A stretch of 43,830 nt of DNA from Candidatus Micrarchaeota archaeon (GTDB lineage: Archaea; Micrarchaeota; Micrarchaeia; Anstonellales; Bilamarchaeaceae). The notes under the pieces were generated by a model, which ran no database searches, was not told the origin of the DNA, and saw nothing but the letters and a program-made list of their open reading frames with translations. Of this stretch, positions 13,228 through 41,493 are shown one piece after another (the stretch's first letter is position 1; each line of letters starts with the position of its first letter). Where the stretch lies: contig JAGVWJ010000002.1 in the NCBI GenBank assembly GCA_018304385.1, positions 1 through 43,830 of the forward strand, read 5' to 3'. A program made the translations under genes and the position numbers.

Positions 13228-14511
13228 ATGGCAAAAACGTATATAGATACAGTAAAATATTTGGTATATGCAAATGTAGATATTGGTGGATTAGTGGAAA
13301 AACCAGATGTTGTTGGCGCAATATTTGGCCAGACTGAAGGGTTATTAGGGGATGAACTAGATCTAAGAGACCTACAGAAAAATGGAAGAATAGGAAGAAT
13401 AGAGGTTGACTTAAACGGCAAAGAAGGGAGAACTATTGGCATTATAAAAATCCCAAGCAGCTTAGACATGGTAGAAACATGCATAATCGCTGCTGCATTA
13501 GAGACAGTTGATAGAGTTGGTCCATGTGAAGCAAATATAAAGATAGGTAAGGTTGAGGATACTAGAAATGTAAAACGTAAAGTGCTAGTTGATAGGGCTA
13601 AGGGCTTACTCAAAACGCTAATCAATACTGAACTACCAGAAAGCAAAGAGATTTCTGAAATGGTAAGGGATGAGGTTAAAACAGCAGAGATAGTTGAGTA
13701 TGGATATGAACGATTGCCTGCTGGTCCAAACGTTGATAAAATGAATGAGGTCATGCTTGTTGAAGGTCGTGCAGACGTCATAAACCTGCTAAAGAATGAC
13801 ATAACAAATGCGGTTGCAATAGGCGGGGCAAAGGTACCACCAACAATTGTAAAGCTATCAAAAGAAAAGGAGATAACTGTATTCTTAGATGGCGACAGAG
13901 GCGGAGATATAATACTAAACGAGTTGATTCAAGGCGGCGTTGAAATAGATTTTATAGCGCGCGCTCCAACTGGCAAAGAGGTTGAAGAATTAACTCGTAA
14001 GGAGATTATAAAGTGTGTACGTGGTCGTATGCCATTTGAACAAGAAACAGAAGGACAGAATAAAAGAGAGGATAGAGACGCAAGAATCAAAAGGAAATTC
14101 GATCGTGCTGAAAGAAGAGAATACAATGATATCCAGGATGCAATTGCAACAGAGAAAATAACAGAAAAGGTAGCAGAAATCCAACCAATAATACATGAAA
14201 AAATGCAAGAGGCAAAAACACTGCAGGTTGACAAAAGTACTCTGATAAAAGAATTGGAAGAATTAAACAATACGCTACGCGCAAGATTTTATAACAGCGG
14301 TTATGAAAGAGTAAAGGAAATAGCTGTTAGAGATGTGATTAAAGCATTGGAAGAAACAAGAGATGTATCTGCAATAGTATTTGATGGGATAATTACGCAA
14401 CGATTAGTAGATTTAGCTGCACATCGTGGCGTTAAATTACTTGTAGGAATAAAGATTGGTAATGTAAATAAAACGCCAGAAGGAATAGAAATTATTACTA
14501 AAAGCAGGTAG
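13228..14511 (+). CDS. dnaG: Archaeal DnaG-type primase / exosome-associated protein
   Basis: GLVEKPDVVGAIFGQTEGLLG, DLRDLQKNGRIGRI, VEGRADV, FLDGDRGG; GGTGA RBS before ATG 13228. Confidence 0.95.
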   Translation: MAKTYIDTVKYLVYANVDIGGLVEKPDVVGAIFGQTEGLLGDELDLRDLQKNGRIGRIEVDLNGKEGRTIGIIKIPSSLDMVETCIIAAALETVDRVGPCEANIKIGKVEDTRNVKRKVLVDRAKGLLKTLINTELPESKEISEMVRDEVKTAEIVEYGYERLPAGPNVDKMNEVMLVEGRADVINLLKNDITNAVAIGGAKVPPTIVKLSKEKEITVFLDGDRGGDIILNELIQGGVEIDFIARAPTGKEVEELTRKEIIKCVRGRMPFEQETEGQNKREDRDARIKRKFDRAERREYNDIQDAIATEKITEKVAEIQPIIHEKMQEAKTLQVDKSTLIKELEELNNTLRARFYNSGYERVKEIAVRDVIKALEETRDVSAIVFDGIITQRLVDLAAHRGVKLLVGIKIGNVNKTPEGIEIITKSR

Positions 14512-14536
14512 CTATTAGCTTGTGGCAGGTGGCTTT
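14509..14536. repeat. Degenerate heptamer tract (4 units)
   Basis: tagctat tagcttg tggcagg tggcttt. Confidence 0.6.
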
Positions 14537-14671
14537 ACCAGTAGAAACATAAATTACATATAGGTTGTTGTAAAAGACTTTAAGGACGTGGTGGGCGAAT
14601 TCGTAGGCGCCAAAGTTTATGATGCAAATTATGAATGCTTAATCGGGAAGATGATAAATTGGACACAATAG
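14522..14671 (+). pseudogene. Relic of a C-terminal TRAM domain, MiaB/MtaB-like methylthiotransferase type
   Basis: Translates VAGGFTSRNINYI*VVVKDFKDVVGEFVGAKVYDANYECLIGKMINWTQ*, matching the R..NY..VVV....GEFV.(V)KI..A....LIG pattern; internal TAG at 14561; no upstream gene body. Confidence 0.55.
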
Positions 14672-15594
14672 AAGTAAAAGATCTAGAAGTATCTTATTCT
14701 GGTGGCAAAAAGAGTATCTCTAACTGCAGCTTTTCTATTTCATCTAGTGAGATATTTGGATTACTTGGGTTTAATGGAGCAGGAAAAAGCACTATCATAA
14801 AGGTTTTGTCTGGTGTGATAAAAAATTTCAGCGGAGAGGTTAAAATAACTGGTGAAAATATTAAAATTAATCCTGAAAAAAGTCACTCCTCTATTGCTTA
14901 TGTGCCACAGTTTCATTCTATGTTTGATGATTTTACAGTGAAAGAAAATATATTATTTTTTTGTAAGATGGAAGGGGTTGATTATGGGGAAATAGAAAAA
15001 ACTACCAATGCACTTCTTGAAGAATTTCAATTAAAAAGATTTGAAAATATTAAAGCTGGCATGTTATCGGGTGGTTACCGGCAACTTTTAAACATAGCTA
15101 TCTCTATGATTTTAGATAAGCCAATTGTAATATTCGATGAGCCTACCGCAGGCTTAGATCTATGGGCAAAGAGAAGAGTAATAGACTATATAAAAAATCT
15201 AAAACATAAAGGAAAAACAGTAATACTTACTACGCATGATTTACAAGATGCAGAACAACTCTGCGATAATGTCATAATCATATCCGATGGGATAGTAATG
15301 GCAAGCAGTAGCATGAGAAATCTTATCCAGAACCTTGGCGGGGATTATCTCATCAACGTATCACTAGAAAAACAAATAAATATAAAAAATCTAAAACTTG
15401 AATTTTCAAAATTAGTCAGTAGTACACAGGACCAAGTAGTTGTCTCTACAACTTCAAAAAATATTGCGTTTGCAATAAAGGAACTTATGTCAAGTATTGA
15501 AGATGCGGGCTTATCTATAACTGACTTTAAGGTAAAAGAACCAACACTTAGCGATGTATTCTCAAATATTGCATTTAAGGTGCAAGGCAAATGA
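14635..15594 (+). CDS. ABC-2 type transporter ATP-binding protein
   Basis: Walker A GFNGAGKST, signature LSGG, Walker B IFDEPT, H-loop TTH, DUF4162-like tail; true start may be the TTG at 14659. Confidence 0.93.
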   Translation: MLNREDDKLDTIEVKDLEVSYSGGKKSISNCSFSISSSEIFGLLGFNGAGKSTIIKVLSGVIKNFSGEVKITGENIKINPEKSHSSIAYVPQFHSMFDDFTVKENILFFCKMEGVDYGEIEKTTNALLEEFQLKRFENIKAGMLSGGYRQLLNIAISMILDKPIVIFDEPTAGLDLWAKRRVIDYIKNLKHKGKTVILTTHDLQDAEQLCDNVIIISDGIVMASSSMRNLIQNLGGDYLINVSLEKQINIKNLKLEFSKLVSSTQDQVVVSTTSKNIAFAIKELMSSIEDAGLSITDFKVKEPTLSDVFSNIAFKVQGK

Positions 15595-17911: not shown

Positions 17912-18385
17912 TTACACCGGTTGATTCACGAGCAACGTAGTTCCATTATTATAGAACGATATCACATTTTTGCAATTACTGCTTATTATTTTTTTACTTG
18001 GGCTTACACAACCTACAAAGTTATAATTATAAATGGGGATAGGATAGAAATTTGTTATATTTCCATAGGTTCCTTTCCATGTAAAGTACAAACCACCATT
18101 CGTAGTATCAAACAAAACCTCATAAGGTTTTGAAATGAGTGTTTTCTTAAATGTCATATTAAATCTGAAACCTTCACCGCTGCGCACTGAGAGTACAACT
18201 GCATCAGCGAAGCTATCTCCAACCTCTCTACTAAGAATAGACTCACGAAAACTTATTTCATTAGCCTGTAACGAAGAAACTATAGATAATGTAGCAATGA
18301 CAACAAGTAGAAAAACACCTGCGTATAGGAAGAATTCACTAGCTACCTGCCCATTGCTCATTGCTGATTGCCGACTGCTATCCAT
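17912..18385 (-). CDS. Type IV pilin-like protein (class III signal peptide)
   Basis: ...SNG|QVASEFFLYAGVFLLVVIATL, with E at +5. Confidence 0.75.
   Translation of the reverse strand: MDSSRQSAMSNGQVASEFFLYAGVFLLVVIATLSIVSSLQANEISFRESILSREVGDSFADAVVLSVRSGEGFRFNMTFKKTLISKPYEVLFDTTNGGLYFTWKGTYGNITNFYPIPIYNYNFVGCVSPSKKIISSNCKNVISFYNNGTTLLVNQPV
18340..18381. repeat. Degenerate heptamer tract (6 units) inside a pilin signal peptide
   Basis: tagctac ctgccca ttgctca ttgctga ttgccga ctgctat. Confidence 0.7.
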
Positions 18386-18809
18386 ATACTTCTACCTCAA
18401 CATCACCATTAGGCTTTGATTTTGTTCTTAATGTTATTGAAAATAAACCAGCCCGTTTATTCAGCGAACTAGGATTAATTATTGTCGCATTTGCAAATAT
18501 AGGAGAGGCTGCTTCATAAACGCCGCTAGATGTTTTAAGCCTTATTACAACCTCTTTGTCTTTTATACTTAAATTTTGCATGTTTGTAGGAAACGCAATA
18601 GTAATTGTTTTTTTCGATCCTGGGCCCTGAACAAATAACTCGTTAATATTGTCTGCAATCGTCTTAGATGCTGCATCTGCTTGCGCGAGCGTAGATTTTT
18701 CATACCCAAACTGAGAAACAGATAGCAGTAATAAAAGTACTGGGATTGTGAATGCGAAAACTACACCCACTGTTATTAATAGTTCTAATGAAACCTGTGC
18801 TTTCATCAT
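18378..18809 (-). CDS. Type IV pilin-like protein (class III signal peptide)
   Basis: MMKA|QVSLELLITVGVVFAFTIPVLL, E at +5; GAGGTG RBS before ATG 18809. Confidence 0.85.
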   Translation of the reverse strand: MMKAQVSLELLITVGVVFAFTIPVLLLLLSVSQFGYEKSTLAQADAASKTIADNINELFVQGPGSKKTITIAFPTNMQNLSIKDKEVVIRLKTSSGVYEAASPIFANATIINPSSLNKRAGLFSITLRTKSKPNGDVEVEVYG

Positions 18810-20386
18810 TCGCACCTCGCCTTGGTATCTACACAAGAAATATCCTTTCCATTCAAGAAATCGGATTTTGCATTTGATCCTAGCCTGAAATGCCCAAGCA
18901 AAGAATCATCAGAACACATATTGAAATCCCTACATCCAGGCATTCCTCTTATTTTATCACCAGAAATAGATGGATTTGAAAATAGCTCTCGATCTGCCCT
19001 ACTTACTGTATCTGGATAAGATGGAACAACTGGTGCACCAGCATCAATACCTGCTCCGCCAATATATTTGCCAACTAAAAATGTTTCTATTCCATAGGTG
19101 CTACTATTGCGCGCAAATGCATCGTCAAATAATCTTTGGAAATAGGATGGCGAGCGATAGTTTCGAACATAATAGCTACACATTGTGAAATCTCTAAGTT
19201 TTTCAATATCGTAGATGGCTGCTTGTGATTGCGAAGCAAGTTTTCTTTCTTTATTTGCGTTTACATCCTCATAACTATATTTCATAACAAATAACATACA
19301 TTTTCCATCTGGGCAATCACCACCAGAGTTTATATTGAAATTAGGTCGAACAATGAATGGTTTATTTGTTTGAATGTATGCACCACTAAAATCTGGATTA
19401 GGACAATCTAGAGAATTATAAACTAAAGCATTGATTGTATTGAATTGATTATTCTTGCCTGGACAGGCAGAAGCAGAGGCCTCTACTGTATTAGTAACAA
19501 TATATGCGCCAAACTGACCATAATCAACTGTTGCATTACTCAAACCCGCAATTTCTGTATAATTACCAACTAAGATATACCTGCTTCTTTGGTTATCTTG
19601 GATGCTCTGTGCGTTATTTACGTGCACCATCGGCCCATAGAACCAGCCTTGGCCATCACTTGTAGGAACGGAAAGGTCCCGTGGTGTAAAGTTAGAGCTA
19701 TTCTGATAGCCTGAATAAAAGAAGAATTGCTTTTCTATTGGTGTTGCTGAGCCATGTTTCTTATCTTCTCTATTTATTGCAGGATCAACTAAGCCCTCTA
19801 TAGTCATATTGCCACGCAAACTATAGTCCCTGCTTATAGATGCAAGGCCGCTCTTTTCCTCTATAGTAAGGTGAACATCAAATGAATAATTAAGCGAATG
19901 AACAGCTACCTGCTTTATTGAAAAATTATCCAATGAGAATCTGCCTATTTGCATGCCGGTTTTTGATATAGAATTATTTAGACTATCAACCCACCCAGTA
20001 AAGGAATTTTGAACACCAATATCTAACTCTAAATTAGTAACAAAATTGCTAGCATTCGCTTTGCCATAGTACATCAACTCATAGAATGTTTTATTTACAT
20101 AATAAAATTCACCAGCTGACCCACTAATACCATTGGATTTAACTGGGTTATCTGCAGCAAACTCATTTAGTTTAAATAATGCGTCATAAGAAACTATTCT
20201 AGCTAGTTTTTCCAATTTATCTTTTGTAACTTGCGTGGCTACAAGGTCTAGATTAGATGTTCTAAAACGATCTGAAAATCGCCTCTCATTTTCCTCTACT
20301 GCTTTTGTCCATATAGATATAGATAATAATATGTAACTAAGTATCAAGAAAATCGCGACTACAAAGAAAAAACCCTTGGAATTCAT
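18806..20386 (-). CDS. Large pilin-like / adhesin-like surface protein with class III signal peptide
   Basis: MNSKG|FFFVVAIFLILSYILL followed by a ~500-aa Asn/Ser-rich, Cys-containing domain. Confidence 0.7.
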   Translation of the reverse strand: MNSKGFFFVVAIFLILSYILLSISIWTKAVEENERRFSDRFRTSNLDLVATQVTKDKLEKLARIVSYDALFKLNEFAADNPVKSNGISGSAGEFYYVNKTFYELMYYGKANASNFVTNLELDIGVQNSFTGWVDSLNNSISKTGMQIGRFSLDNFSIKQVAVHSLNYSFDVHLTIEEKSGLASISRDYSLRGNMTIEGLVDPAINREDKKHGSATPIEKQFFFYSGYQNSSNFTPRDLSVPTSDGQGWFYGPMVHVNNAQSIQDNQRSRYILVGNYTEIAGLSNATVDYGQFGAYIVTNTVEASASACPGKNNQFNTINALVYNSLDCPNPDFSGAYIQTNKPFIVRPNFNINSGGDCPDGKCMLFVMKYSYEDVNANKERKLASQSQAAIYDIEKLRDFTMCSYYVRNYRSPSYFQRLFDDAFARNSSTYGIETFLVGKYIGGAGIDAGAPVVPSYPDTVSRADRELFSNPSISGDKIRGMPGCRDFNMCSDDSLLGHFRLGSNAKSDFLNGKDISCVDTKARCE

Positions 20387-23059: not shown

Positions 23060-23060
23060 T

Positions 23061-27734: not shown

Positions 27735-27737
27735 GTA

Positions 27738-28838
27738 CTATAAAAACTTAACCAACCCTCTTCCAATCTCTGGTATGTTCCCACCAAACAGGTTAGATGT
27801 GGAAAGCACGAAAGTAAGCACTAATACCATGGCAACCAAAGGTATGAAGCATATGGTAATGGTAATATGCCTAAGTACGCCTGTCAAACTAGAGTCAGTA
27901 GATATATTAAATGGCGAGGTTGGATCAATTCCTAAGAAATCTTTTATCTTGCTTCTATGAAGACTCATCCAGGATTTTATCTCAAACATCTTGCCAGCTG
28001 TTGTAAACCCACAATATTGCATGTCACCTAGATTTGGTAAGGTGCAAACAACATTAGAAGTAAATCCAGGACCTGATTCGTAAGTTACTGCGCCAACATT
28101 CCCGCCAGTATCCATGATTGCTGGTTTTACATAAGGTAATGTCATACTGGTTGCAAGAATGTATGTCATTGGAAATACCAGATACATACCAATTGCAAAT
28201 GCGATTATATATGCGCCTGCACCGCGTGTAGGAGGAAATGCGCGTAGCACTACGCCAACACCAACAAAAAATAACGCATAATGATTAATGAAATTCAGTA
28301 TATGCACTATAACATAATAAGAAAATACGAAAAATTGCAATGCCTGCGTTGCATTATTTATACGCTCTACTAATATTTTAAAACCAAATCCGCTAGCATG
28401 CTCGCTCATAAATATTTCTAGATAAACAGATGCTATTGCCTCAGAAGGTATGCTTATTACATATAGCATATTAATTATTTTTCTGCTACAGGTAATTGCT
28501 GGCTCCATGTACAATTTTGTAATATCAATAAGCGTTGCAGGTTGACCACCTGCAGTAACAAGCGTGCCTGGCAAAGGAATACCATATGATGCGCTAAACA
28601 TTTCGCTTGCAATGCCAACGAGCATATTTTCTCCGCCTTTCACAACGCCAATTATTACTAATACCAAGAAAACAGTAGATGCTGCATAAACAATTTCTAC
28701 TTTAGCAACCTGCTGGAATTGCGGGAATTGGAATACTTTGGAAAACATTAGTAATAGCACTGAAGCAAATACACTAATCAATGCTGCAAGGATTGCAAAT
28801 GATTCCCAACCTACAAACACAGTTTCATGACCAGCCAT
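27738..28838 (-). CDS. Multi-pass membrane protein, paralog 6 of 6 (VirB6/CedA-like by inference)
   Basis: AK.E motif after TM1; G..LRAFPPTRGAGAYIIA...FP; C-terminal GGNIPEI..L. Confidence 0.8.
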   Translation of the reverse strand: MAGHETVFVGWESFAILAALISVFASVLLLMFSKVFQFPQFQQVAKVEIVYAASTVFLVLVIIGVVKGGENMLVGIASEMFSASYGIPLPGTLVTAGGQPATLIDITKLYMEPAITCSRKIINMLYVISIPSEAIASVYLEIFMSEHASGFGFKILVERINNATQALQFFVFSYYVIVHILNFINHYALFFVGVGVVLRAFPPTRGAGAYIIAFAIGMYLVFPMTYILATSMTLPYVKPAIMDTGGNVGAVTYESGPGFTSNVVCTLPNLGDMQYCGFTTAGKMFEIKSWMSLHRSKIKDFLGIDPTSPFNISTDSSLTGVLRHITITICFIPLVAMVLVLTFVLSTSNLFGGNIPEIGRGLVKFL

Positions 28839-28839
28839 C

Positions 28840-29982
28840 TTAGATCATCCTAGTTAACGTAGTAATATCAACTTCTTCTCCTAGTGATTTGCTCATATAT
28901 TTTACAGCTTGTACAAGTACTAAAACATTTAATGCTGGCAACAGATAACCAACAGCAAACGCAATGCCAACAACAGTAAGTGGCACAAAGAATGCTACGG
29001 CAAATAATGTGCCAAAGAAATTTTGGAATATTTCACCAAGTTTTACAAGATTACCAATTGTAAGATTCCATAATATGTCTACAAAACTTTCTACTTGTTT
29101 TTCAGTTGAAAGAGATGGTGCTACTGATGGAGTTGCTGGAGTTCCTGCTGAAGGCGGAGTGCTAGGTGTTGGGTCTGGACAACCTGGAAGATAATCACCA
29201 AATTCAGCGCATGCAACATCTTTAACAGCATCATCCATACCTCTAATTGGACTATCTGGACTTAGGACTATCTGAGCATTTATTATTGTTACAAATGGAA
29301 CGATAAATAAAAACCCAAGGCCAATGGCAATTAATGCACCACCCAAACGACGCGTTGGCGTAAATGATCTTAACACTAAACCAAGCGGGATATAAAATTT
29401 CAAGAACCCAACAACAGCAAATTCAAATACAATGCGCTGTGCAGTATTAATGATATATGCAATTGTTAATGCAGAATTAATATTGTAGATTATCTGCTTT
29501 AAAGGAGCTGCAAAACCAGCAAGCGGCGCAGCAACAATACCAACACCAAGCGGACGCGAATATGGCGTTGCTGATGCGAGATTGTCTGTCCATACGCCAA
29601 ATAAATAATCTGTTTCCATCCAACCAATAATCATATCCCCTACCTCAATGTAATATTGCTGGGTAGCCTTGTATATTTTATCATCAGGATGATGACCATG
29701 CGGAAATATAGAGCCAACTGTTAATGAATTCATCATAGCCACAGCAGATATAATGAAAACAACCAATATTGCACTCATTATTAATTCGAATAATTCTAGC
29801 TTGACAAAACCTATAGTACCTTGGTTTCTAAGTATGACGCCAATCAAATAGATGAATGTTAAAAGCATAAGTGAGGTAATTAGCGCTGCAGCTAATGCTG
29901 CTGTCCAATCTGGGAATAGCGCTGCAAAATCACCGCCGCGATCAATGAATCCCTGAATATCAAATATGTGTGATGTCATCAA
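28840..29982 (-). CDS. Multi-pass membrane protein, paralog 5 of 6
   Basis: VKLELFE; PLGLVLRSFTPTRRLGGALIA; LLPALN...GEEVDI..LTRMI. Confidence 0.8.
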   Translation of the reverse strand: MMTSHIFDIQGFIDRGGDFAALFPDWTAALAAALITSLMLLTFIYLIGVILRNQGTIGFVKLELFELIMSAILVVFIISAVAMMNSLTVGSIFPHGHHPDDKIYKATQQYYIEVGDMIIGWMETDYLFGVWTDNLASATPYSRPLGVGIVAAPLAGFAAPLKQIIYNINSALTIAYIINTAQRIVFEFAVVGFLKFYIPLGLVLRSFTPTRRLGGALIAIGLGFLFIVPFVTIINAQIVLSPDSPIRGMDDAVKDVACAEFGDYLPGCPDPTPSTPPSAGTPATPSVAPSLSTEKQVESFVDILWNLTIGNLVKLGEIFQNFFGTLFAVAFFVPLTVVGIAFAVGYLLPALNVLVLVQAVKYMSKSLGEEVDITTLTRMI

Positions 29983-31241
29983 ATCAACCTGACGAATGCA
30001 AAGAAATTAATATCAACATTAAAGAATCGCGCAGTTTCTCGCGCGCTTGTAAGTGTTATGAAAATATTAATTAGTGGCAATATTAGACTCATAATAACAA
30101 TGAAAAATACTGATGCTTTTATAAGTTCAAAGGCTACGCTAAGTGCACCTGTTAAGAAAAACGGTATGAATACACCTCCCATAAACAATAGAAGCACCCA
30201 AAATATGCCGAAAATGCCAAGCCCACCGTAATCCCTTACAAAATTAACAATTGGCGAGTTTGGATCTACTGCGCCACAATAATCACTAATGCCATTACCA
30301 AAGCTAGAAAGCCCGCCATATACGTTACATCCCATTAGCTTATAGATTTCATAATTAACTATAAACATAAATGGATAGAATAAAGAAAATGAAAATACTA
30401 ATGCGATAAATGCATCTCCTGCACCGCGTATTGGCGGTATTGAACGCATAAGCATTCCTATTGGGATAAATATTGAGAATGTCCATTTTTTTATCATGCA
30501 CATTGTTGTTATATGCACAACCCATTCGCCTATGCCAACGCTTAGGAATTGCATGGAAAATCCAAGAATATCTATCAATGGTTTTAATACTGGGCCAAGA
30601 TTAAAGGAAAACATAGCGCGCCATGTTACGCCAAACCACATTGTTGCAGAGAATAATGTATGTATAACCATATTATAAGATATTAAAAGGAAAAAATTAG
30701 TTGTCATATCTTTAACTAATAATTCAGAAAACACAATTGATGCATCTATATAGGTTGGTGCCTGCATATAAACAACATCAGTAGTACCTGCTGGTATATT
30801 CATTGAATACCATTGAGTAGCAGCGCTCATTACTACTATAATAAAGGTAACCCTAAGAAATGTTATGCCAATTTGGAAAAATTCCTCTTTAGCAATGGCA
30901 ATTATATTAGGAGATTGTAAAAATATACCAAACAAATAAACTAGCGTATAAATCATTACAAGTATAAATAAAACTAGCCCTATAGGTGCCAACCATTCTG
31001 ATTTAGCAAAATCAAGCCAACCACCTGGAGGATCGCACGTGCCTGCACCTATCCATCCAAAAACAGACTGGAATGCAGCATTCACTTTAGTTGTTGAGCT
31101 TCGTATAAACTCGCAGGTACTATCGTGTACTACATTGCCTTCTGCATCTATATTTTCACAATCATGGTTTGTTGCATTGCTGACTGGTACGACTAACAAA
31201 AACGCAAGCATGAAAACGAACAACAACATTTTATATTTCAT
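29979..31241 (-). CDS. Multi-pass membrane protein, paralog 4 of 6
   Basis: AKEEFFQ; PIGMLMRSIPPIRGAGDAFIA...FYP; ILPLIN; start moved from 31289 to MKYK at 31241 because the extension is repeat-derived. Confidence 0.8.
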   Translation of the reverse strand: MKYKMLLFVFMLAFLLVVPVSNATNHDCENIDAEGNVVHDSTCEFIRSSTTKVNAAFQSVFGWIGAGTCDPPGGWLDFAKSEWLAPIGLVLFILVMIYTLVYLFGIFLQSPNIIAIAKEEFFQIGITFLRVTFIIVVMSAATQWYSMNIPAGTTDVVYMQAPTYIDASIVFSELLVKDMTTNFFLLISYNMVIHTLFSATMWFGVTWRAMFSFNLGPVLKPLIDILGFSMQFLSVGIGEWVVHITTMCMIKKWTFSIFIPIGMLMRSIPPIRGAGDAFIALVFSFSLFYPFMFIVNYEIYKLMGCNVYGGLSSFGNGISDYCGAVDPNSPIVNFVRDYGGLGIFGIFWVLLLFMGGVFIPFFLTGALSVAFELIKASVFFIVIMSLILPLINIFITLTSARETARFFNVDINFFAFVRLI

Positions 31242-31264
31242 ATGTATTTCCTGCCTTGGGCCCC

Positions 31265-31316
31265 GAGCAATGAGCAAACGTTGGCTCATGGCTCATTGCG
31301 CACTGCTCATTGCTAT
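31265..31316. repeat. Palindromic heptamer tract (GAGC/GCTC variant)
   Basis: gagcaat gagcaaa ... tggctca tggctca ttgcgca ctgctca ttgctat. Confidence 0.8.
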
Positions 31317-32698
31317 ATTAAATGTGTCAACCCAGCTATTTCTATATCCCCTCCAAGCACCATAGATAAACTTCTTATAGCTGCAATGGATGCTAGTATG
31401 CCAAGTAAACCAAAGAATATTGAAAAGAATGCATATCTGGCAAGCATGTCAAAAATGCCACCATTATCAAATGCACTTCCTGGGAATGGATCATACCATT
31501 TACTTGAACTAATGTTTTGGAACCATTTCATTCCAACATCATAATTATCCTTAAATGCCCTGAGCGCTTGATCACGATCAGTAACTCGATTGCCTGTATT
31601 AAAGTTATACGCGCTATCTTCACCACTTGGACGCAGCAACTCACCATCCTCTAAACTCTTTTTATGATCTCCCCCACCCTCTGATTTAATATAAACATCT
31701 AGTTTTCTATATTCTTCTGCTTCTTTGCCTAAATCCAGTTTCGATCCAAGAATTGTGATATTACCACTCGCATATATGTAGTGGGCTATTTTTGGATCCA
31801 GGTCATCTGCTGTACGTAGCTCATCTTTAATGTGCTTTATTATAATGCCAGGAAATACATAAAACATAGGGAATATAAAAAATAATACAAGTGCTATTGC
31901 CATTAAAAGACCGCCTAATTTTCTGGTAAATACAAATGTTCGCATGATTATGCCTAGTATAAATAAGCCAGGAAACAATGCCTGACTTATAAAGCTGATT
32001 AGTACTTCTTGGAATTTTAATAATGTCATTATCTTTATTGCTGTTTCAAAAATAAATGTCTTCATTAAATTGCCAAGCACCACAAATCCACGCCATGGCG
32101 TAAGTGTAAAGAAACCTGCCTTTTCAAAAACAAATTCAATATTTATTGCAAAATCCGCTAATGTTGAACTAAGGAGCGAACTAAGATAAACATGAAAATT
32201 AAAATCATCCAATTCACCAAATAATGTATTAAGAAAATACATAGCAACCCTTATGTGGCAATATGGGATACCTTCTTTTTTTACTGGGTCCCAATAATAA
32301 GGAGAATTAGGATTATCTGCTAGGAATGTACCAGTCTCTTTACAAAGATCAACAGGCTCGTAGCTATAATCTAAAAATGTCCTTCCAAGCGCAGCACTTC
32401 CAACAAGGTTTCTGCCAACAGGATAGTATACCGAAAATTCTCCATTAGTATCAACTACAAGCGATTTAACAAGACTATTTCCAGTGTTAACTGTAAACAT
32501 AACAAATGCAATTATAACGGCAGAATAAAATATTTCAACAAAACCAGTTTTTGCAGCGCCTTTTATTTTATCATTTTGTATAAATATTCCAAGAAGATAA
32601 ACAACAATGTTAACAAATACTGCTATAAGTATAAGTAATCCCATAATAGGCATCCAATAATTTAACAACGCATCATCAAATATTAAACCCATATTCAT
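31313..32698 (-). CDS. Multi-pass membrane protein, paralog 3 of 6
   Basis: AKTGFVE; LGIIMRTFVFTRKLGGLLMA...IFP; GGDIEIAGLTHLI; start moved from 32722 to 32698 (AGGAG RBS). Confidence 0.8.
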   Translation of the reverse strand: MNMGLIFDDALLNYWMPIMGLLILIAVFVNIVVYLLGIFIQNDKIKGAAKTGFVEIFYSAVIIAFVMFTVNTGNSLVKSLVVDTNGEFSVYYPVGRNLVGSAALGRTFLDYSYEPVDLCKETGTFLADNPNSPYYWDPVKKEGIPYCHIRVAMYFLNTLFGELDDFNFHVYLSSLLSSTLADFAINIEFVFEKAGFFTLTPWRGFVVLGNLMKTFIFETAIKIMTLLKFQEVLISFISQALFPGLFILGIIMRTFVFTRKLGGLLMAIALVLFFIFPMFYVFPGIIIKHIKDELRTADDLDPKIAHYIYASGNITILGSKLDLGKEAEEYRKLDVYIKSEGGGDHKKSLEDGELLRPSGEDSAYNFNTGNRVTDRDQALRAFKDNYDVGMKWFQNISSSKWYDPFPGSAFDNGGIFDMLARYAFFSIFFGLLGILASIAAIRSLSMVLGGDIEIAGLTHLI

Positions 32699-32701
32699 CT
32701 C

Positions 32702-32778
32702 CTGCTTTTGGCTTTTGGCCATTAGCTAGTAGCTACGAGCCAACAGCCAAAGGCTAAGAGCCAATTGCTCATTGCCAA
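32702..32778. repeat. Palindromic heptamer tract (11 units)
   Basis: ctgcttt tggcttt tggccat tagctag tagctac gagccaa cagccaa aggctaa gagccaa ttgctca ttgccaa. Confidence 0.88.
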
Positions 32779-32779
32779 A

Positions 32780-33799
32780 TCATATTTTCATAAGCACGAA
32801 TTTTATAAACGTATTAATGAATGAAAACGTAATAGTTAGCGATAGCGCAGGCAAGAAAAGTGCAGCAAGTGACAGCGTTGCAAGGCTATCTAATATAGGC
32901 TCGAACATTATTGGTGTTAACATGTTAATGCCTAGCTCTGAGAATATTAGTCTAAATAGCTGCCCAAATACAGGAACCTTTCCAATGCCAAAAGGAAACG
33001 AAACTAATGGGCTTCCAATAAAACCAAATATGAAATAATTAGAGCTGCAAAATGTTGATAGCTGATAACCTTGCCGCACGTATCCCTGATAGTTCATTGA
33101 CTCTAAGATCTTTTCATTTATCACATAAGTGAGCGGAAATACTGCCTGAAACCCAATTGCAAACGCAATAAGGAAGATACCAGCATCACGGGTTGGGGGA
33201 AAGAACCTAAGGGCATCACGAGTTGGTGGAAAGAACCTAAGGATAATGCCTGCAGGTAAGAAGAACCTTACCATTGTGACGTCAATAAGTTGAAATATTA
33301 CTAACTGAGCATTAAGGCTGCCAAATGCTGCTGTTAACCCAAAACCAAGCACATTCGTAACGCCAACAAACGTATCCATGCCTGGAAATATTTTATATGT
33401 AAGTGTTAAAACAAATTCGCCTATTCTTCTGGTAAGTGTACTTAGGACAGATACGCATATCTGAACCAAATACACATCGTTTATTCCTTTCAGTGTATCA
33501 CTAAGTGTGGATTTTAAAAAATTAGAGCCAGCCTCAATAGCACTAGTAGCACCTCCGCCTGCCATACCCGCAGCAATTAAATTTGCAGCAGTAAAGAAAC
33601 CAATAGCAAATAGCAGAATGAAGAATGAGGCAAAAAATTCTGAAAGCTCAACATTAAACCAAACCTCTAAGCTTTGTAGTTTAAGAACTTTAGATGCAAG
33701 ATACGTAAGTATAATTAAGCCAAGAATAACACTACTCACAAGCATAATAACGAAAAGATAAATGCTTACTGCATCTTGTGCGCCAGTCATAATCATCAC
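32780..33799 (-). CDS. Multi-pass membrane protein, paralog 2 of 6
   Basis: VELSE; PAGIILRFFPPTRDA(LRFFPPTRDA)GIFLIA...VFP; FLPALS. Confidence 0.8.
   Translation of the reverse strand: MMIMTGAQDAVSIYLFVIMLVSSVILGLIILTYLASKVLKLQSLEVWFNVELSEFFASFFILLFAIGFFTAANLIAAGMAGGGATSAIEAGSNFLKSTLSDTLKGINDVYLVQICVSVLSTLTRRIGEFVLTLTYKIFPGMDTFVGVTNVLGFGLTAAFGSLNAQLVIFQLIDVTMVRFFLPAGIILRFFPPTRDALRFFPPTRDAGIFLIAFAIGFQAVFPLTYVINEKILESMNYQGYVRQGYQLSTFCSSNYFIFGFIGSPLVSFPFGIGKVPVFGQLFRLIFSELGINMLTPIMFEPILDSLATLSLAALFLPALSLTITFSFINTFIKFVLMKI
33183..33242. repeat. 30-bp in-frame tandem duplication
   Basis: gcatcacgggttgggggaaagaacctaagg / gcatcacgagttggtggaaagaacctaagg; both differences are synonymous. Confidence 0.92.
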
Positions 33800-35391
33800 A
33801 CTAATTTCGTCAAGCCCATTATTTCAACCTCGCCACCTATTAACTCAGATATATTTCTATACATTGTAATGGTAATAATAATCTCAATTACTGATGTGAT
33901 AGTAACCAATATGATAAACTGGGATATTGCAACAACCTCTTCTATTATAAACTTATAAAGACCGCCTGAAGAACCTAAAGGTATCCCCTTACCCAGATTC
34001 ATAAGCCAGTCGCCAGAAAATGTCATCATTGTTATCCAGATGTTAACTACAGTACCTACGAAACTTACTATAGCACTTGCAGTGCCAGTTATCACATTCC
34101 AAACGCTGCATAAAAATCTAGGAAGATAATTGCATTTATCAACTTGTGTCCTTTGTATAATGTCTTTATCTTTTTGGAAATGATCTAAGAAATGACTCGA
34201 TTCTTCTTTTGCCTCGTCCTGCATATGCCTAAGCTTGTCTGCTCTTTGCGCATCTGTTAACCCGGGATCATTGTAAAAGCTAATTGCATCCTCATTTGGC
34301 GTAAATAAAAACAGCGCTGGCTTGAATATATCAAAAACAAGATAATTGGAAAACATAATAGATAAAGGATAGATAAAATAAACAACAATGCATATAGCAA
34401 TAAGGCTCGAACCTGTTGCCCTAAACCAAGGAAACGCACGCATAATTAGACCAAATGGCAATAGTATTGTTGGTATTGCATCCCTTGCAAATATTACAAT
34501 AAACTCTTTTGCCCAGATAACTGACATGAGATAGCCAATTGCCTCTACTACCACAGTATGCGCATTAGCTAATAGTATCAAACCATCAAAAGGCATTAAT
34601 GAGAATGAAATAATATTTACTGCTGGAAATGGCGAGCCAATGGGAAAAGAAACTGTTGATAAAAATCCAATGAGTACCTCAAAAAGGTATAAACTAGTAT
34701 AGTGTGTTCTTAGCTTTACAAAAAATATTTCTAGCGAACCATATGCAACGTCCAGATGTGATGTTAAATAGGTATATCCAGCCTGTGTTTGTGTTGTTGT
34801 AGGGATATTCAAACCTGGCGTAGATTGCGCAATTATACCAGTAGATATATCTGTAAACAACTGAGTAATTGTAACCCAGGAAATTAGGATAACTATGCTC
34901 ATAATTAATACGCCAAGCTCTTCTTTTGCTGCTAGCTGCAATGGCGGATGTTGAAGTACCTGACCTGGCAAATAGAATAAAACAACCCATATAACCCCAA
35001 ATAAAAGCGCAACAATTATATGTTTAAAATAAGGTGGTGGAAACTTACCTGTAAGCAGATTTACTATGTTCTGCTCTGTGAATACAACATAAATAATAAT
35101 TGCGATAAATGCTGCGATTGCAAGGTTTTCTGCCCAGATTGTTGCTTTTGCGCGCGTTTCTGCACCAAAAGACTGACCTAGCGTGTATAACACGGCTGCA
35201 GATAGTATAAGAAGCATTATTGATGGACCTAAGAAACTACGAAAAGTATGCATCGTATTGCACATATCTTGTGAGATAGTACCTGGCGCGTATATACCGC
35301 ATTCGGAATATTGGGCAAAACTAGTACCGATTATTAGCAAAAACACTACTAGTATTAATAGCGGTTTTATACCCATAAATATATTGCACAT
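33796..35391 (-). CDS. Multi-pass membrane protein, paralog 1 of 6, with an extra N-terminal VirB2/TrbC-pilin-like hairpin
   Basis: Signal peptide (..SFA|QY), two-helix module (LILSAAVLYTLGQSFGAETRAKATIWAENLAIAAFIAII), AAKEEL, PFGLIMRAFPWFRATGSSLIA...IYP, GGEVEIMGLTKLV. Confidence 0.78.
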   Translation of the reverse strand: MCNIFMGIKPLLILVVFLLIIGTSFAQYSECGIYAPGTISQDMCNTMHTFRSFLGPSIMLLILSAAVLYTLGQSFGAETRAKATIWAENLAIAAFIAIIIYVVFTEQNIVNLLTGKFPPPYFKHIIVALLFGVIWVVLFYLPGQVLQHPPLQLAAKEELGVLIMSIVILISWVTITQLFTDISTGIIAQSTPGLNIPTTTQTQAGYTYLTSHLDVAYGSLEIFFVKLRTHYTSLYLFEVLIGFLSTVSFPIGSPFPAVNIISFSLMPFDGLILLANAHTVVVEAIGYLMSVIWAKEFIVIFARDAIPTILLPFGLIMRAFPWFRATGSSLIAICIVVYFIYPLSIMFSNYLVFDIFKPALFLFTPNEDAISFYNDPGLTDAQRADKLRHMQDEAKEESSHFLDHFQKDKDIIQRTQVDKCNYLPRFLCSVWNVITGTASAIVSFVGTVVNIWITMMTFSGDWLMNLGKGIPLGSSGGLYKFIIEEVVAISQFIILVTITSVIEIIITITMYRNISELIGGEVEIMGLTKLV

Positions 35392-35418: not shown

Positions 35419-38235
35419 ATGTTATTTATGGATTTTACTACTATTGAGCATACTTGGCGCCAGACTTGGGAGCACGAGCACGTTTTCGAACCAGAACCTG
35501 CAAAAGGCAAAAAGAAATTTGTTACTGCTGCATTTCCATATCCGAACTCGCCGCAGCATATAGGCCACGGCAGAACGTATACTACGTTAGATATATACGC
35601 GCGCTATTTGCGCATGCTTGACTACAATGTACTATTTCCAATGGGATTTCATGTAACTGGCACGCCTATTATTGCAATGGCAAAGCGCATAGCAGATCGC
35701 GACCCAGAAGTATTAGAAATATTTGAAAAAATTTATGGAATTGATCGAGCCACAAGCCAAAAGCTAACCGCGCCAGAGCAATTAGTTATGTATTTCTCAA
35801 AAGAAATAGAACAAGGCATGCATGAAATGGGGTATAGTATTGATTGGCGCCGCAAGTTCTATAGCTTTGATAAGAAATTTAATCGATTTATCCAATGGCA
35901 GTTCCACAAACTAAAACAGCTTGGCTATATTGTACAAGGCGAGCATCCGATTGCATGGTGCCCAAGTGATAAGCAGGCAGTTGGCGGACATGATACGCGC
36001 GGGGATGTTGACCCAGAGTTAAAGGAATTTACTACAATAAAATTTCGCTTTGAAGATGGTTTCTTGCTTACAGCTACTTTAAGACCAGAGACAATTTATG
36101 GTGTAACAAACATCTGGATAAATCCCGATCTTTTGTATGTAAAAGCAAAAAGCGGGAAGAATGGTGAGATATATTATATCTCAAAAAAAGCATATGAAAA
36201 GATGAACTGGCAGGGGTTTGAACTTAAAATCCTCGAGGAGTTTATTGGAAGCAAACTGCTAAATAAAACGTCAAAAAATCTTGTAATGGAAAATTCTCTG
36301 CATACCGAATATTATGATGAAGCATTTGTGGAGATACCTCTTTATCCTGCGCCATATGTAAAGGATGATACTGGAACTGGTGTGGTTATGAGCGTACCAT
36401 CTCATGCACCATATGATCATATTGCACTTTTAGACATGGGAATAAAACTAGATTACACACAGATAATCAAGGTTGAAGGATATGGATTTATGGCGCAAGA
36501 GCTTATCGAGCAGCGCGGAATAAAAAACCAGCATGATCAAAAACTAGAAGATATTGTCAAGGAAGTTTATAAAAAAGAGATTCTAACTGGGGTAATGGTT
36601 GCTGGCCCATTTAAAGGCGAACGTGTTTCAGTAGCAATTGAAAAAACGAAAAAGGATTTATTTGATAAAAATTTTGCTATTAGATTTCTGGAGATAGATA
36701 ATAAACCTGTTTATTGCCGCTGTGGAAGCGAGGTTGTTGCAACTGTTCTCAAAAATCAATGGTTTATTGATTATGGAAATGAAAAATGGAAAAATACAGC
36801 GAAGCAATGCTTAGAGCATATGAAAATAATTCCTGAAAAATCACGTGGTGAATATTTATACGCAATAGACTGGTTTAAGCAAAAGGCATGCGCACGCGCT
36901 AGCGGTTTAGGTACCAGATTCCCTTTTGATGAAAAATTAATGATAGAAGCGCTTAGCGATTCTACTATTTATATGGCATTTTATACGATTTCGCATTTGT
37001 TGGATGGCATAGATGAAAAAGAAATGAATGAAGAATTCTTTGATTATGTTCTTTTAGGAAAAGAGCCAAAAAACAAAAAGCTAAAGGCTAATTGCCAAAG
37101 GCTAAGAGCAAGCTTTTTATACTGGTATCCTTGTGATTCACGCCACAGCGCTGGAGACTTAATCCGAAATCATTTGCCATTTTATATTTTCAATCATGTT
37201 GCAATTTTTCCAAAAGAGCATTGGCCAAAGCAAATAGTAACTAATGGATTTGTATTAATGGACGGCAAGAAAATGAGCAAAAGCATGGGAAATATATTGC
37301 CATTACGAAAAGCAATACGCGAATATGGCGCTGATGTTATAAGATTTTCAATAGTTAGCGGTGCAGATTTAACACAGGATACTGATTTTAATAAAAGCGT
37401 TGCAGAAGGAACTAAAACTAGATTGGAATTCATAGCGAGGTTAGTTGAAGAAACTGCTAGTGGCAAGTGGCAGGTAGCTGTTAGCCACGAGCCAAAAGCC
37501 AATAGCCAAAAGCCAATAGATAACTGGCTCCAATCCCGTTTAAACAAAAAAATAAAATTAGCCAAAGAATATTACGAAAAATTTGCAATACGCGAGCTCG
37601 CATTGGAAATTTTTTATGATCTAGTAAATGATTTGCACTGGTATATTAAACGTACTAATCAACCACAGTTAAAAGATTTTCTCAAAACATGGTCTTTGCT
37701 TATTGCGCCATTTATGCCTTATGTTGCAGAGGAATTCTGGCATAAGCTAGGTGGCAAGGGGTTAGTTGTAAGTGCAAAATTTCCAAAAGCAGATGATAAA
37801 AAAATTGATGAAACTGCAGAAATGGGCGAGAACCTAGTAAAAGAAACATTAGCTGATATTGAAAATGTTATTAAGCTCATAGGCAAACAACCTCAGAATA
37901 TTTACATTTATGTCGCAGGTGCATGGAAACACAAGCTTTACGAAATGATAAAAAAAGAAAAGGCATTTGATAAAGTAATGAAACTCGCTGCTCAAGACCC
38001 AGAACTCAAAACAATAATGAATGATGTTCAACGCGTTACTAAGCAGCTAATTAAAAATGCGCATTCACTACCTGAAACGCTGAGCGAAAAAGGAGAGCTT
38101 GTAGCCCTACAAGATGCTATTACATTTTTTGAGCGAGAATTAAAATGCAAAATATTCTTATTACATGATAAGGATGGAAAACACGAAAAATCTAAAAATG
38201 CATTACCAAATAAGCCAGCTATTATGCTGGAGTAA
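35419..38235 (+). CDS. leuS: Leucyl-tRNA synthetase, archaeal type
   Basis: AFPYPN..QHIGH, GFHVTGTPI, ATLRPET, GTGVVMSVPSHAPYD, KMSKSMGN. Confidence 0.95.
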   Translation: MLFMDFTTIEHTWRQTWEHEHVFEPEPAKGKKKFVTAAFPYPNSPQHIGHGRTYTTLDIYARYLRMLDYNVLFPMGFHVTGTPIIAMAKRIADRDPEVLEIFEKIYGIDRATSQKLTAPEQLVMYFSKEIEQGMHEMGYSIDWRRKFYSFDKKFNRFIQWQFHKLKQLGYIVQGEHPIAWCPSDKQAVGGHDTRGDVDPELKEFTTIKFRFEDGFLLTATLRPETIYGVTNIWINPDLLYVKAKSGKNGEIYYISKKAYEKMNWQGFELKILEEFIGSKLLNKTSKNLVMENSLHTEYYDEAFVEIPLYPAPYVKDDTGTGVVMSVPSHAPYDHIALLDMGIKLDYTQIIKVEGYGFMAQELIEQRGIKNQHDQKLEDIVKEVYKKEILTGVMVAGPFKGERVSVAIEKTKKDLFDKNFAIRFLEIDNKPVYCRCGSEVVATVLKNQWFIDYGNEKWKNTAKQCLEHMKIIPEKSRGEYLYAIDWFKQKACARASGLGTRFPFDEKLMIEALSDSTIYMAFYTISHLLDGIDEKEMNEEFFDYVLLGKEPKNKKLKANCQRLRASFLYWYPCDSRHSAGDLIRNHLPFYIFNHVAIFPKEHWPKQIVTNGFVLMDGKKMSKSMGNILPLRKAIREYGADVIRFSIVSGADLTQDTDFNKSVAEGTKTRLEFIARLVEETASGKWQVAVSHEPKANSQKPIDNWLQSRLNKKIKLAKEYYEKFAIRELALEIFYDLVNDLHWYIKRTNQPQLKDFLKTWSLLIAPFMPYVAEEFWHKLGGKGLVVSAKFPKADDKKIDETAEMGENLVKETLADIENVIKLIGKQPQNIYIYVAGAWKHKLYEMIKKEKAFDKVMKLAAQDPELKTIMNDVQRVTKQLIKNAHSLPETLSEKGELVALQDAITFFERELKCKIFLLHDKDGKHEKSKNALPNKPAIMLE
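37063..37112. repeat. Heptamer tract in frame within leuS
   Basis: aagctaa aggctaa ttgccaa aggctaa gagcaag, encoding KLKANCQRL. Confidence 0.75.
37454..37519. repeat. Palindromic heptamer tract (9 units) in frame within leuS
   Basis: ctgctag tggcaag tggcagg tagctgt tagccac gagccaa aagccaa tagccaa aagccaa tag. Confidence 0.9.
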
Positions 38236-39178: not shown

Positions 39179-40063
39179 ATGACAACTTTACTCGATCTAC
39201 TAAAATCAAAAATTCCTAAAAGCAAACTGCAATTTGCACCACGCTCTTTTGATCTAATTGGCAGCATGGCAATAGTTGAAATAAAGGATGAAGTTAAAAA
39301 ATATGAAAAGCAAATTGCAAATGCAATAATGCAACTGCATAAGCCGATCAGAACGGTTGTGAAAAAATCAAGCGCAATGAAAGGCGAGTATCGTGTCCGT
39401 AGGGTAAAGATAATTGCTGGGGGGAAAAGTACTGAAACTATTTATCGTGAGCATAATGTAGCCATGAGATTTGATGTTGCAAAAACATATTTCTCTGTTC
39501 GCTTAAGTCATGAACGTGAACGCGTTGCTGCATTGGTTAAAAATAAAGAAAATGTTTTAGTAATGTTTGCAGGTGTTGGACCATTTGCATTGGTTATTGC
39601 CAAGAAGCATCCTAAAGCAAATGTTATTGGAATAGAAAAAAACCCTGCTGCCGCGAAATATTTTGAGGAAAATATTAAATTGAATAAATTGCAAAATTGC
39701 AAAGCGATTCGAGGAGATGTGAGAAAGGTTATTGCAATTGGCAGTTGGCCGTTGGCTAGTGGCCAAAAGCTAAAAGCCAATAGCCAAAGGCTAATTAGCT
39801 GGGCAGATAGAATTCTTATGCCGTTGCCAAAAAGCGCTGAAAACTTTTTAGATGTTGCTTTTAAGGCTGCGAAAAATAATTGTGTTATTCATTTCTATAA
39901 TTTTGGAGCTGATGAAAATGTCTTTGAGCAAGTTAGAGAAAAAATAAATAAAGCTGCGAAAAAATGCAATGTTAAAATAAAAATTCTAAATGAAAAAATT
40001 GTTAGACCGTACGCACCACATATAGTGCAGGTTTGTATAGATTTTAAAGTAAATAAAAATTAG
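39179..40063 (+). CDS. trm5: Trm5/Met10-family SAM-dependent tRNA methyltransferase, lacking a full D1 domain
   Basis: PRSFDLIG..AIVEI, GE.RVR....IAG...TET..REH, YFSVRLS.ER, MFAGVGPFA, N..LNK, ILMPLPKSA, IHFY.F. Confidence 0.85.
   Translation: MTTLLDLLKSKIPKSKLQFAPRSFDLIGSMAIVEIKDEVKKYEKQIANAIMQLHKPIRTVVKKSSAMKGEYRVRRVKIIAGGKSTETIYREHNVAMRFDVAKTYFSVRLSHERERVAALVKNKENVLVMFAGVGPFALVIAKKHPKANVIGIEKNPAAAKYFEENIKLNKLQNCKAIRGDVRKVIAIGSWPLASGQKLKANSQRLISWADRILMPLPKSAENFLDVAFKAAKNNCVIHFYNFGADENVFEQVREKINKAAKKCNVKIKILNEKIVRPYAPHIVQVCIDFKVNKN
39732..39794. repeat. Palindromic heptamer tract (9 units) in frame within trm5
   Basis: ttgcaat tggcagt tggccgt tggctag tggccaa aagctaa aagccaa tagccaa aggctaa. 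Confidence 0.9.
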
Positions 40064-40260: not shown

Positions 40261-40267
40261 CTCAATC

Positions 40268-40951: not shown

Positions 40952-41099
40952 ATAAACAAAGAAATAAACTGCAGACCGATTAATTGAGCTAGGGTAAAAA
41001 ACAGTAATATTTGGAATAGGAGTTTCATAAGTAGATATAAAAGAGATGATTTAAGTTATTTTCCTTACATACAAATAACAGTTTATTGGGAGTGATTAA

Positions 41100-41426
41100 A
41101 TGATTTGCCCTATGTGTAATTCAAAATTAAAAAAAGGAAAGATCAAAGAAGAATACCTTGGGCATGATCTGGGAATATTTGATGGATTTACTTGCACAAA
41201 ATGCGGAGAAACCTTGTTAACTGAAGAAAGTGTAAAAAAGGCGCAGCAGAAAGCAAAAGAACTTGGAATTCTTGGATTAGCTGAAAAAACGACGATTTCA
41301 AAAAGCGGAAATTCCTTAATGGTTAGGATAAAAAAGAATGTTGCAGAATACTTGGGTCTTACAGAAGGTGAAAAAGTTATTATCCACCCAGAAGGTAAGA
41401 AAAAACTAGTTGTAGAAGTTATTTAG
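41100..41426 (+). CDS. YgiT/YokU-type zinc finger fused to an AbrB/SpoVT domain (antitoxin-like, no partner)
   Basis: CPMC...C.KCGE.LL, then KTTISKSGNSLMVRI.K.VAE.LGL.EGEKV.I; GGAGTGA RBS. Confidence 0.8.
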   Translation: MICPMCNSKLKKGKIKEEYLGHDLGIFDGFTCTKCGETLLTEESVKKAQQKAKELGILGLAEKTTISKSGNSLMVRIKKNVAEYLGLTEGEKVIIHPEGKKKLVVEVI

Positions 41427-41458
41427 TATCTTACATGCACCGAAAACTGGAAACTGTT

Positions 41459-41493
41459 TGGCTCAAAGCCCAAGGTTCATGGCCCATGGCAAT
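41459..41493. repeat. Degenerate heptamer tract (5 units) after the MCM stop codon
   Basis: tggctca aagccca aggttca tggccca tggcaat. Confidence 0.65.

Follow-up and report, generated by a model that had tools for sequence, protein, structure and literature searches.

What are the degenerate heptamer tracts that recur along this archaeal DNA, and what could have put them there? The stretch in question, hereafter the window, is positions 1 to 43,830 of contig C4 (JAGVWJ010000002.1) of a small Candidatus Micrarchaeota genome from groundwater, here called G000. A preliminary description of it listed ten tracts of tandem heptamers with a fixed-phase two-base core, and took them for an actively spreading, undescribed repeat family of an archaeon, made by a trans-acting generator. 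We found that the tracts belong to a genome-wide family of arrays of about five heptamers, and that in other genomes inverted pairs of such arrays bracket a small gene of the four-helix-bundle family TIGR02436/PF05635. Whether the arrays of G000 are gene-less copies of the cis sites of that element is, in our judgement, an evenly balanced matter, which we weigh below against three other explanations.

Heptamer arrays are abundant throughout the genome

The G000 assembly comprises 1.53 Mb in 65 contigs, has a GC content of 36.5% and is 89% complete; a rough map gave 1581 open reading frames (ORFs) covering ~90% of its bases. We counted runs of a GC core followed by five nucleotides in G000 and, as a baseline, in three genomes simulated with a second-order Markov model. 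Runs of at least four such units numbered 194 in G000 and 8-16 in the simulations, those of at least five units 130 as compared to 0-1, and those of at least six units 32 as compared to none. When the test was repeated with periods of 5, 6, 8, 9 and 10, 15-61 runs were obtained. A scan independent of the core, which scores self-identity at a lag of 7 and calls a tract at 23 or more matches out of 35, yielded 115 tracts, as compared to 4-12 at lags of 5, 8, 10, 11 and 13 (an earlier threshold of 22/28 gave just 30 tracts, being too strict for degenerate units, and was replaced by the windows of 35 comparisons). Genome-wide 7-nt autocorrelation, which had been proposed as a check, is thus far higher than that of the control lags, and the tracts are more frequent than chance allows. 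Altogether, we estimate that G000 holds 150-250 arrays, about one per 7 kb, in agreement with the ten found in the 44-kb window.

Degenerate tandem heptamers in a fixed phase were present at each of the ten coordinates listed in the preliminary description, with a GC core at all of them but 27672, where the core is GT/AC. Tandem Repeats Finder reported a period of 7 or 14 at eight of the ten (18348, 27025, 27670/27697, 31284, 32704, 37076, 37490 and 39734/39762). The close relatives of the leucyl-tRNA synthetase (LeuRS) encoded in the window are all metagenome-assembled genomes of Candidatus Micrarchaeota; together with the genome-wide excess over the simulations, this bears out the view of a real, dispersed family residing in an archaeon.

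Modules consist of about five heptamers and occur singly or as inverted pairs

Of the seven positions of a unit, just 3 and 4 are fixed (G 0.94 and C 0.95), the others being biased yet variable, and units of one array differ from each other at 3-4 of their 7 positions. Counted strictly, arms of four units occurred 63 times, of five units 99 times, of six units 13 times and of seven units 6 times, a distribution with its mode at five and no geometric decay. The basic module is therefore an array of ~5 heptamers, occurring either singly or in inverted pairs. Many elements have two arms, and among 44 large elements two types of inverted pair recurred. Sub-family A consists of a TTGGC-type arm, a TAGCTA centre and a GCCAA-type arm, while sub-family B consists of CTGCC, 4-5 TGAGC-type units, a short ACG-rich loop, 4-5 GCTCA-type units and GGCAG, and its end often lies ~10 nt upstream of an ATG. 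A third type of pair, with the GT/AC core, is represented by the copy at 27672. The same unit sub-families were found at unrelated loci, and the sub-variants noticed earlier are recurring sub-families, not a continuum. What the copies have in common is a degenerate consensus and not a master sequence.

We compared the hairpin energy of each copy in the window with that of shuffled sequence, expressed as a z score. Three paired elements folded clearly, forming hairpins with a helix segment every 7 nt and small internal loops in between: the sub-family A element at 32702-32780 on the minus strand, with 11 in-phase GC heptamers (TTGGC arm, TAGCTA centre, GCCAA arm; -33.4 kcal/mol, z -2.9), and two inverted-pair hairpins on the plus strand, at 37454-37519 (-22.3 kcal/mol, z -2.7) and 39732-39797 (-33.1 kcal/mol, z -3.6). 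The GT/AC pair at 27672-27741 (TTGGT arm followed by ACCAA arm; -16.4 kcal/mol, z -1.4) and the sub-family B hairpin at 31251-31318 on the minus strand (TGAGC-type arm, short ACG-containing loop, GCTCA-type arm; -23.9 kcal/mol, z -1.3) folded weakly. The copies at 14509, 18340, 27024, 37063 and 41459 consist of one array each, and their folding does not surpass that of shuffled sequence. The description of the elements as often palindromic thus applies to about half of them, and since only that half folds, it is the array, and not the hairpin, that the ten copies have in common.

Arrays lie at gene ends and, in frame, inside two enzymes

ORFs take up ~90% of the genome, yet 33 of the 44 large elements proved to be intergenic or to overlie a gene end. 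Elements between co-directional ORFs made up 51 of 71, and many elements start 0-10 nt from a stop codon. Near stop codons the arrays showed a bias of 50 to 20 in favour of one orientation relative to the sense strand, and deep inside ORFs the opposite, stop-free orientation was favoured, 16 to 6. These biases point to a strand-specific constraint, imposed at least in part by the stop codons that the units contain.

The intergenic copies of the window display the same tight placement. The array at 14502-14538 (five GC-core heptamers, z -0.2) overlaps the stop codon of the plus-strand ORF 13216-14511, and that at 18340-18381 (six heptamers, of GCTCA/GCTGA type on the plus strand, z +0.7) covers the junction of the minus-strand ORFs 17912-18385 and 18378-18836. 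The six GCCAA-type heptamers at 27024-27065 constitute exactly the whole 42-nt gap between the two convergent stop codons of ORFs 26169-27023 (+) and 27066-27638 (-), the latter encoding a PIN_5 ribonuclease. The pair at 27672-27741 lies between the start of this PIN_5 gene and the stop of ORF 27738-28838 (-). The element at 31251-31318 is situated between two minus-strand ORFs and ends ~10 nt ahead of an ATG, and that at 32702-32780 between ORFs 31313-32722 and 32780-33799, both on the minus strand. Finally, the five GCTCA/GCCCA-type heptamers at 41459-41493 lie between ORF 41100-41426 (+) and the MCM gene at 41499-42653 (-).

The three remaining copies are located within coding sequence, and the ORFs read through them without stops. 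The LeuRS gene (35419-38235, +) hosts two, namely the single array at 37063-37111 (+), in which five of seven units have the GC core, and the hairpin at 37454-37519, which falls in a variable linker of the enzyme; the third, at 39732-39797, lies in the gene of a Trm5-like methyltransferase (39179-40063, +), named from a reading of its sequence. As compared to its closest relative, a genome of the same genus (G002, 75% complete), the Trm5-like gene has 16 extra residues (+48 nt), and the insert is likewise missing in another relative, G009. Array 37454 amounts to a net gain of 30 nt, in a linker of variable length, relative to all 11 aligned orthologues. Array 37063 corresponds to +15 nt shared by G000 and G002, as compared to G001 (same genus, 92% complete) and other genomes; in G002 it keeps the same 7-nt phase, with AC, AT or GT cores where G000 reads GC, and on this comparison we take it to be a decayed shared copy, the alternative being overwriting in G000. 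A test of length modulo 3, suggested for coding copies at the outset, thus gave a uniform answer: +48, +30 and +15 are each divisible by 3, and in no case by 7, as selection for the reading frame would leave them.

Arrays differ between close relatives

Having described the arrays of G000, we turn to their distribution among 401 genomes sampled from the phylum (including an unpublished one, G048, with a pattern count of 1). By count of a six-unit GC pattern, G000 has 82 and its congeners G002 and G001 have 24 and 0, respectively; of the others only G300 (36), G198 (14) and G009 (12) stood out, and their arrays are of the same unit sub-families as those of G000. G300, which belongs to a related genus, also contains long arrays of 11-15 or more GCAnCCA-type units (C21:5418-5524 and C74:13383-13461), far above the five-unit modules of G000.

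Copies differed also at orthologous positions, the comparison with sister genomes that the preliminary description had called for, and fit turnover. Over syntenic DNA, the lag-7 scan called six tracts in 15.8 kb of the window, none in 13.4 kb of G002, none in 16.7 kb of G001 and two in 19.5 kb of G009. G002 lacks a 437-nt block, 41063-41500, that carries a small ORF and array 41459, the sequences on either side being directly joined there. The ORF of this block encodes 108 aa with a DUF7479 zinc-ribbon-like N-terminus and an AbrB/MazE-like C-terminus, and has the short direct repeat CTTACAT on both sides. In G002 the PIN_5 gene is followed downstream by another neighbour, with no array at that place. 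At least two array sites, 27672 and 32702, coincide with or lie close to breaks in the G002 assembly; another of its contigs (C69) starts with an element ~80% identical to 32702, next to unrelated flanks, and both contigs break there. Because of this break, the C69 element is no more than a candidate orthologue of the 32702 copy.

In other genomes, inverted heptamer arrays bracket a four-helix-bundle gene

The preliminary description suggested a search for genes that co-occur with the repeats, four-helix-bundle genes among them, and this search paid off in genomes other than G000. Of the 401 genomes, just G009 and G300 have a high-scoring type of the TIGR02436/PF05635 gene (E ~1e-38; 125-127 bits to TIGR02436), and these two are among the four array-richest. 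All three of its loci (two in G009, one in G300) are bracketed by inverted heptamer arrays, and the flanking hairpins of G009 are of the sub-family B unit type, with ACG-rich loops as in G000. At one locus in each genome (G009:C16 and G300:C71, two genera) the gene lies between the V-ATPase B and D genes, and the flanking units differ, being of TGAGC/GCTCA type in the former and of GGTAG/CTACC type in the latter. We considered whether G000 retains a relic of a gene-bearing element at this position and rejected it, as its V-ATPase B-D gap holds a nucleoside-phosphorylase-like ORF and no heptamers.

We then examined metagenomes, using an alignment of the high-scoring proteins to fetch 80 loci and scoring two flanks of each, the 150 nt upstream and the region around the stop codon. 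The mean best lag-7 score was 22.8 upstream and 22.0 downstream, of a possible 35, other lags scoring ~13 and lag 7 itself 12.7 at a distance of 500 nt from the loci. At a lag-7 threshold of 20, an array was called upstream in 59 of 71 loci, downstream in 55 and on both sides in 49, as compared to none of 96 control windows. The paired flanking arrays were reverse complementary in 43 of these 49 loci and 4-5 units long, with a unit sequence that varies from locus to locus. Loci on viral contigs had the upstream array in six of six cases.

G000 itself has a single PF05635 match (66 bits, C22:1820-2128), of a divergent type common to ~30 related genomes. A small conserved ORF precedes this gene, as does a hairpin, and both are common to relatives. 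Elsewhere in G000 a reverse-transcriptase gene (C2:18553-18969) lies beside a contig end and has, immediately past it, a heptamer array (C2:18289-18325), and the two genes may be the halves of a unit resembling a diversity-generating retroelement, although NCBIfam does not call the C22 protein Avd. An origin of the arrays driven by reverse transcriptase or such a retroelement was considered and dropped, since the ~30 related genomes that have the divergent PF05635 type are mostly array-free. In one of them, G006, the PF05635 gene (C5:1501-1809) has a direct repeat with GTTTTGG-type heptamers on both sides and, upstream, a tRNA-like 5' sequence, although ARAGORN finds no tRNA in the locus.

The arrays as possible cis sites of a gene-in-hairpin element

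The tracts of the window are copies of a genome-wide family of ~5-unit modules, in which nothing is fixed but a two-base core and one or two bases beside it. We give even odds to a reading in which the arrays act as cis sites for a gene-in-hairpin element of the four-helix-bundle family, the dispersed copies in G000 being its gene-less form. The complete form would be a small TIGR02436/PF05635 gene between two inverted arrays of 4-5 units, an architecture that resembles intervening sequences of 23S rRNA with an ORF inside. Proteins of the four-helix-bundle family would most likely bind the arrays, or process nucleic acid at them, in a strand-specific manner, the substrate being RNA or single-stranded DNA. 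Avd of diversity-generating retroelements, a distant member of this family, is a nucleic-acid-binding homopentamer, and the entries of two solved relatives, 2gsc (Xanthomonas campestris) and 2rld, contain five chains each, a number that may match the five units of the array. In a genome that is 90% coding, arrays would persist only where they are tolerated, that is, directly at stop and start codons, and those that are stop-free and a multiple of three long would persist as extra peptide in variable enzyme loops. While the arrays, their placement and their association with the gene in other genomes are observed, we infer the binding of the arrays by the protein, the descent of gene-less arrays from gene-bearing ones or their dependence on them, and the route by which new copies would arise.

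A more ambitious form of this proposal, which we regard as rather doubtful, would make the five-unit arrays the cognate nucleic-acid sites of pentameric (Avd-like) TIGR02436/PF05635 proteins in general. The gene with its inverted arrays would then be a widespread, unrecognised class of bacterial and archaeal element, and the known heptameric repeats (cyanobacterial STRR, GGGAATC and TAACTGA) would be its gene-less arrays; if true, such arrays have in this archaeon even been written into essential enzymes.

Several observations weigh against the arrays of G000 being sites of such an element. No high-scoring PF05635 gene or remnant of one was found in the 89%-complete assembly, where tblastn with the G009 protein gave only matches with E>0.3, and the divergent gene at C22:1820-2128 has no flanking arrays; the proposed trans-acting generator is accordingly not demonstrated in G000. 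The gene was likewise not found in the array-rich G002 and G198, whose assemblies are 75-86% complete, and genomes with the divergent type are often array-free (G001, G006, G012). Neither a target-site duplication nor a terminal signature is visible at the two clean insertions, in the Trm5-like and LeuRS genes, and as no copy is near-identical to another, recent copy-and-paste is not demonstrated. The association could also run in reverse, with the gene inserting into pre-existing arrays.

Alternative explanations

The arrays might instead serve the host, as selected and immobile cis-regulatory sites, either heptad-spaced or structured RNA in leaders and trailers, with the four-helix-bundle gene merely another user of them. 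Much of the placement evidence would suit this explanation, as the arrays hug stop and start codons with a strand bias relative to the upstream gene; moreover, the GC cores are intact over 11 units at 32702 despite a genome of 36% GC. Bacterial parallels exist as well, TAACTGA repeats lying a few nucleotides upstream of start codons and being proposed sites of a post-transcriptional regulator (PMC4679880), and most Xanthomonas repeats being transcribed (PMC4692102). However, the same arrays occur within the coding sequence of LeuRS and the Trm5-like enzyme, where a leader function is impossible, orthologous gaps in sister genomes do without them, the downstream genes in the window have no common function and about half of the copies do not fold. 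We hold a regulatory role to be unlikely, if the strongest of the alternatives.

Mobility of a conventional kind, in which the copies are non-autonomous transposable elements resembling MITEs (miniature transposable elements with inverted repeats), repetitive extragenic palindromes (REPs) or their doublets (REPINs), served by a transposase elsewhere in the genome or by an element now lost, appears improbable to us. It would explain the palindromic pairs, the hundreds of copies, the intergenic preference, the lineage-specific presence and the recurring ends of sub-family B (CTGCC and GGCAG). Yet inverted ends are lacking in the half of the copies that are single arrays, no target duplication is visible at the insertions in the Trm5-like and LeuRS genes, the copies share a degenerate consensus and not a master sequence, and an internal 7-nt periodicity and a five-unit mode are foreign to known MITEs. 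The earlier remark that no transposase is in view could be extended from the window to the whole 89%-complete assembly for Y1/RAYT (PF01797), the only transposase family searched, whereas the same search was positive in 6 of 14 control genomes. Slippage, by which microsatellite-like tandem repeats would arise in place from a heptamer, is the least credible explanation and seems very improbable, as the preliminary description had argued from the degeneracy of the units. The units are indeed arranged head-to-tail, and many bacterial genomes have an excess of heptameric repeats (cited in PMC4692102), but units of an array differ at 3-4 of 7 positions, the same sub-families occur at unrelated loci, inverted pairing is frequent, and the peak at five units with a sharp fall at six argues against slippage and largely refutes it. 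The cis sites of a gene-in-hairpin element thus remain our preferred, evenly weighted reading of the arrays.

Neighbouring genes in the window

The PIN_5 ribonuclease gene at 27066-27638 (-; E 2e-53) has a heptamer array on both sides (27024-27065 and 27672-27741). At higher coordinates lie six successive large ORFs on the minus strand (27738-35391), of which five were scanned and had no Pfam match at E<=0.01, 28840-29982 not being among those scanned; one of the six, ORF 32780-33799, contains a 30-nt tandem duplication (33183-33242, 93% identical). The MCM helicase gene at 41499-43830 (-) includes an intein-like segment: its ORF 41499-42653 has matches to MCM_lid, to the end of the MCM P-loop domain and, at 31 bits where the Pfam cut-off is 35.8, to Intein_splicing, and the second long ORF of the region runs on to the window edge.

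Comparison with known systems

To our knowledge, heptameric repeats have been recorded for decades in cyanobacteria, xanthomonads, Beggiatoaceae and Bacteroidetes, and no generator, binding partner or function has been identified for them. The arrays of G000 show what characterizes this class, namely an excess of period 7, placement beside start and stop codons, and a preferred unit number with inverted pairs, and they are the archaeal counterpart of the unexplained intergenic heptameric repeats of bacteria (those of Xanthomonas and Nostoc, the TAACTGA repeats of Beggiatoaceae, and STRR). To call them undescribed was therefore too strong, as bacterial arrays of heptamers that lie at gene ends, favour a certain unit number and often form inverted pairs have been published (PMC4692102, PMC4679880); a literature search found no report of such arrays in archaea. 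The archaeal case extends heptameric repeats to DPANN archaea, whose genomes are tiny and in which intergenic bases are scarce, and establishes that arrays can exist as translated inserts in LeuRS and in a tRNA methyltransferase. Furthermore, the link between arrays and a gene (49 of 71 loci on both sides, none of 96 controls) offers a concrete and testable lead on these repeats. Our literature search found nothing that ties PF05635, S23p or four-helix-bundle genes to heptamer repeats; it was incomplete and does not prove novelty.

Among the closest published repeats are the G-rich heptamers described by Rehm et al. 2015 (PMC4692102), GGGAATC/GGGANTN in Xanthomonas and GGGGAYT in Nostoc, which form ~180-190 arrays per genome (~186 in a Xanthomonas genome). 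Their units are heterogeneous around a conserved core and have a preferred number, 70-75 inverted pairs occur in each genome, and the arrays are enriched where ORFs run in the same direction, at most 50 bp from a start or stop codon. The arrays of G000 resemble them in abundance, in the conserved core, in the preferred unit number, in their inverted pairs and in their placement at starts and stops. They differ in having a GC (or GT/AC) core instead of a G-run, a preferred number of five instead of four, several sub-families and an archaeal host, and, unlike the loci presented here, the Rehm repeats have no reported link to a gene family (PMC4692102). As the G000 profile has no run of at least three G per unit and a GC core in place of a G-run, no G-quadruplex is expected in its arrays.

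The TAACTGA direct repeats of Beggiatoaceae, Cyanobacteria and Bacteroidetes (MacGregor 2015, PMC4679880) occur as 2-6 units slightly upstream of start codons, with occasional copies inside ORFs, a patchy phylogeny and no evident mechanism. They share with the arrays of G000 the arrangement of heptamers near start codons, the occasional location within ORFs and the patchy distribution; their units, however, are nearly invariant and almost always direct, whereas those of G000 are degenerate and often in inverted pairs. REP and REPIN sequences (PMC3116915) are likewise short palindromes of extragenic DNA that reach hundreds of copies and are often paired as inverted doublets, but REPs have a fixed sequence in place of degenerate heptads, and no RAYT gene was found in G000.

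The palindromic elements of Rickettsia are bacterial, 100-150 nt long, have a conserved full-length consensus and no 7-nt periodicity, and are inserted in frame and translated. The insertions in the Trm5-like (+48) and LeuRS (+30) genes, missing from orthologues, are similar in behaviour only, the families being unrelated. Lastly, the gene-bearing loci of the other genomes resemble ORF-bearing intervening sequences of 23S rRNA and TIGR02436 genes elsewhere, in that a four-helix-bundle gene is enclosed by inverted repeats with the potential to form a long stem, and in most of the loci examined here these repeats are heptamer arrays of 4-5 units. In contrast to such elements, those of the window are gene-less and do not lie in rRNA: a gene within a hairpin was found in G009, in G300 and in 49 of 71 metagenome loci, and not in G000, where the arrays stand by themselves.

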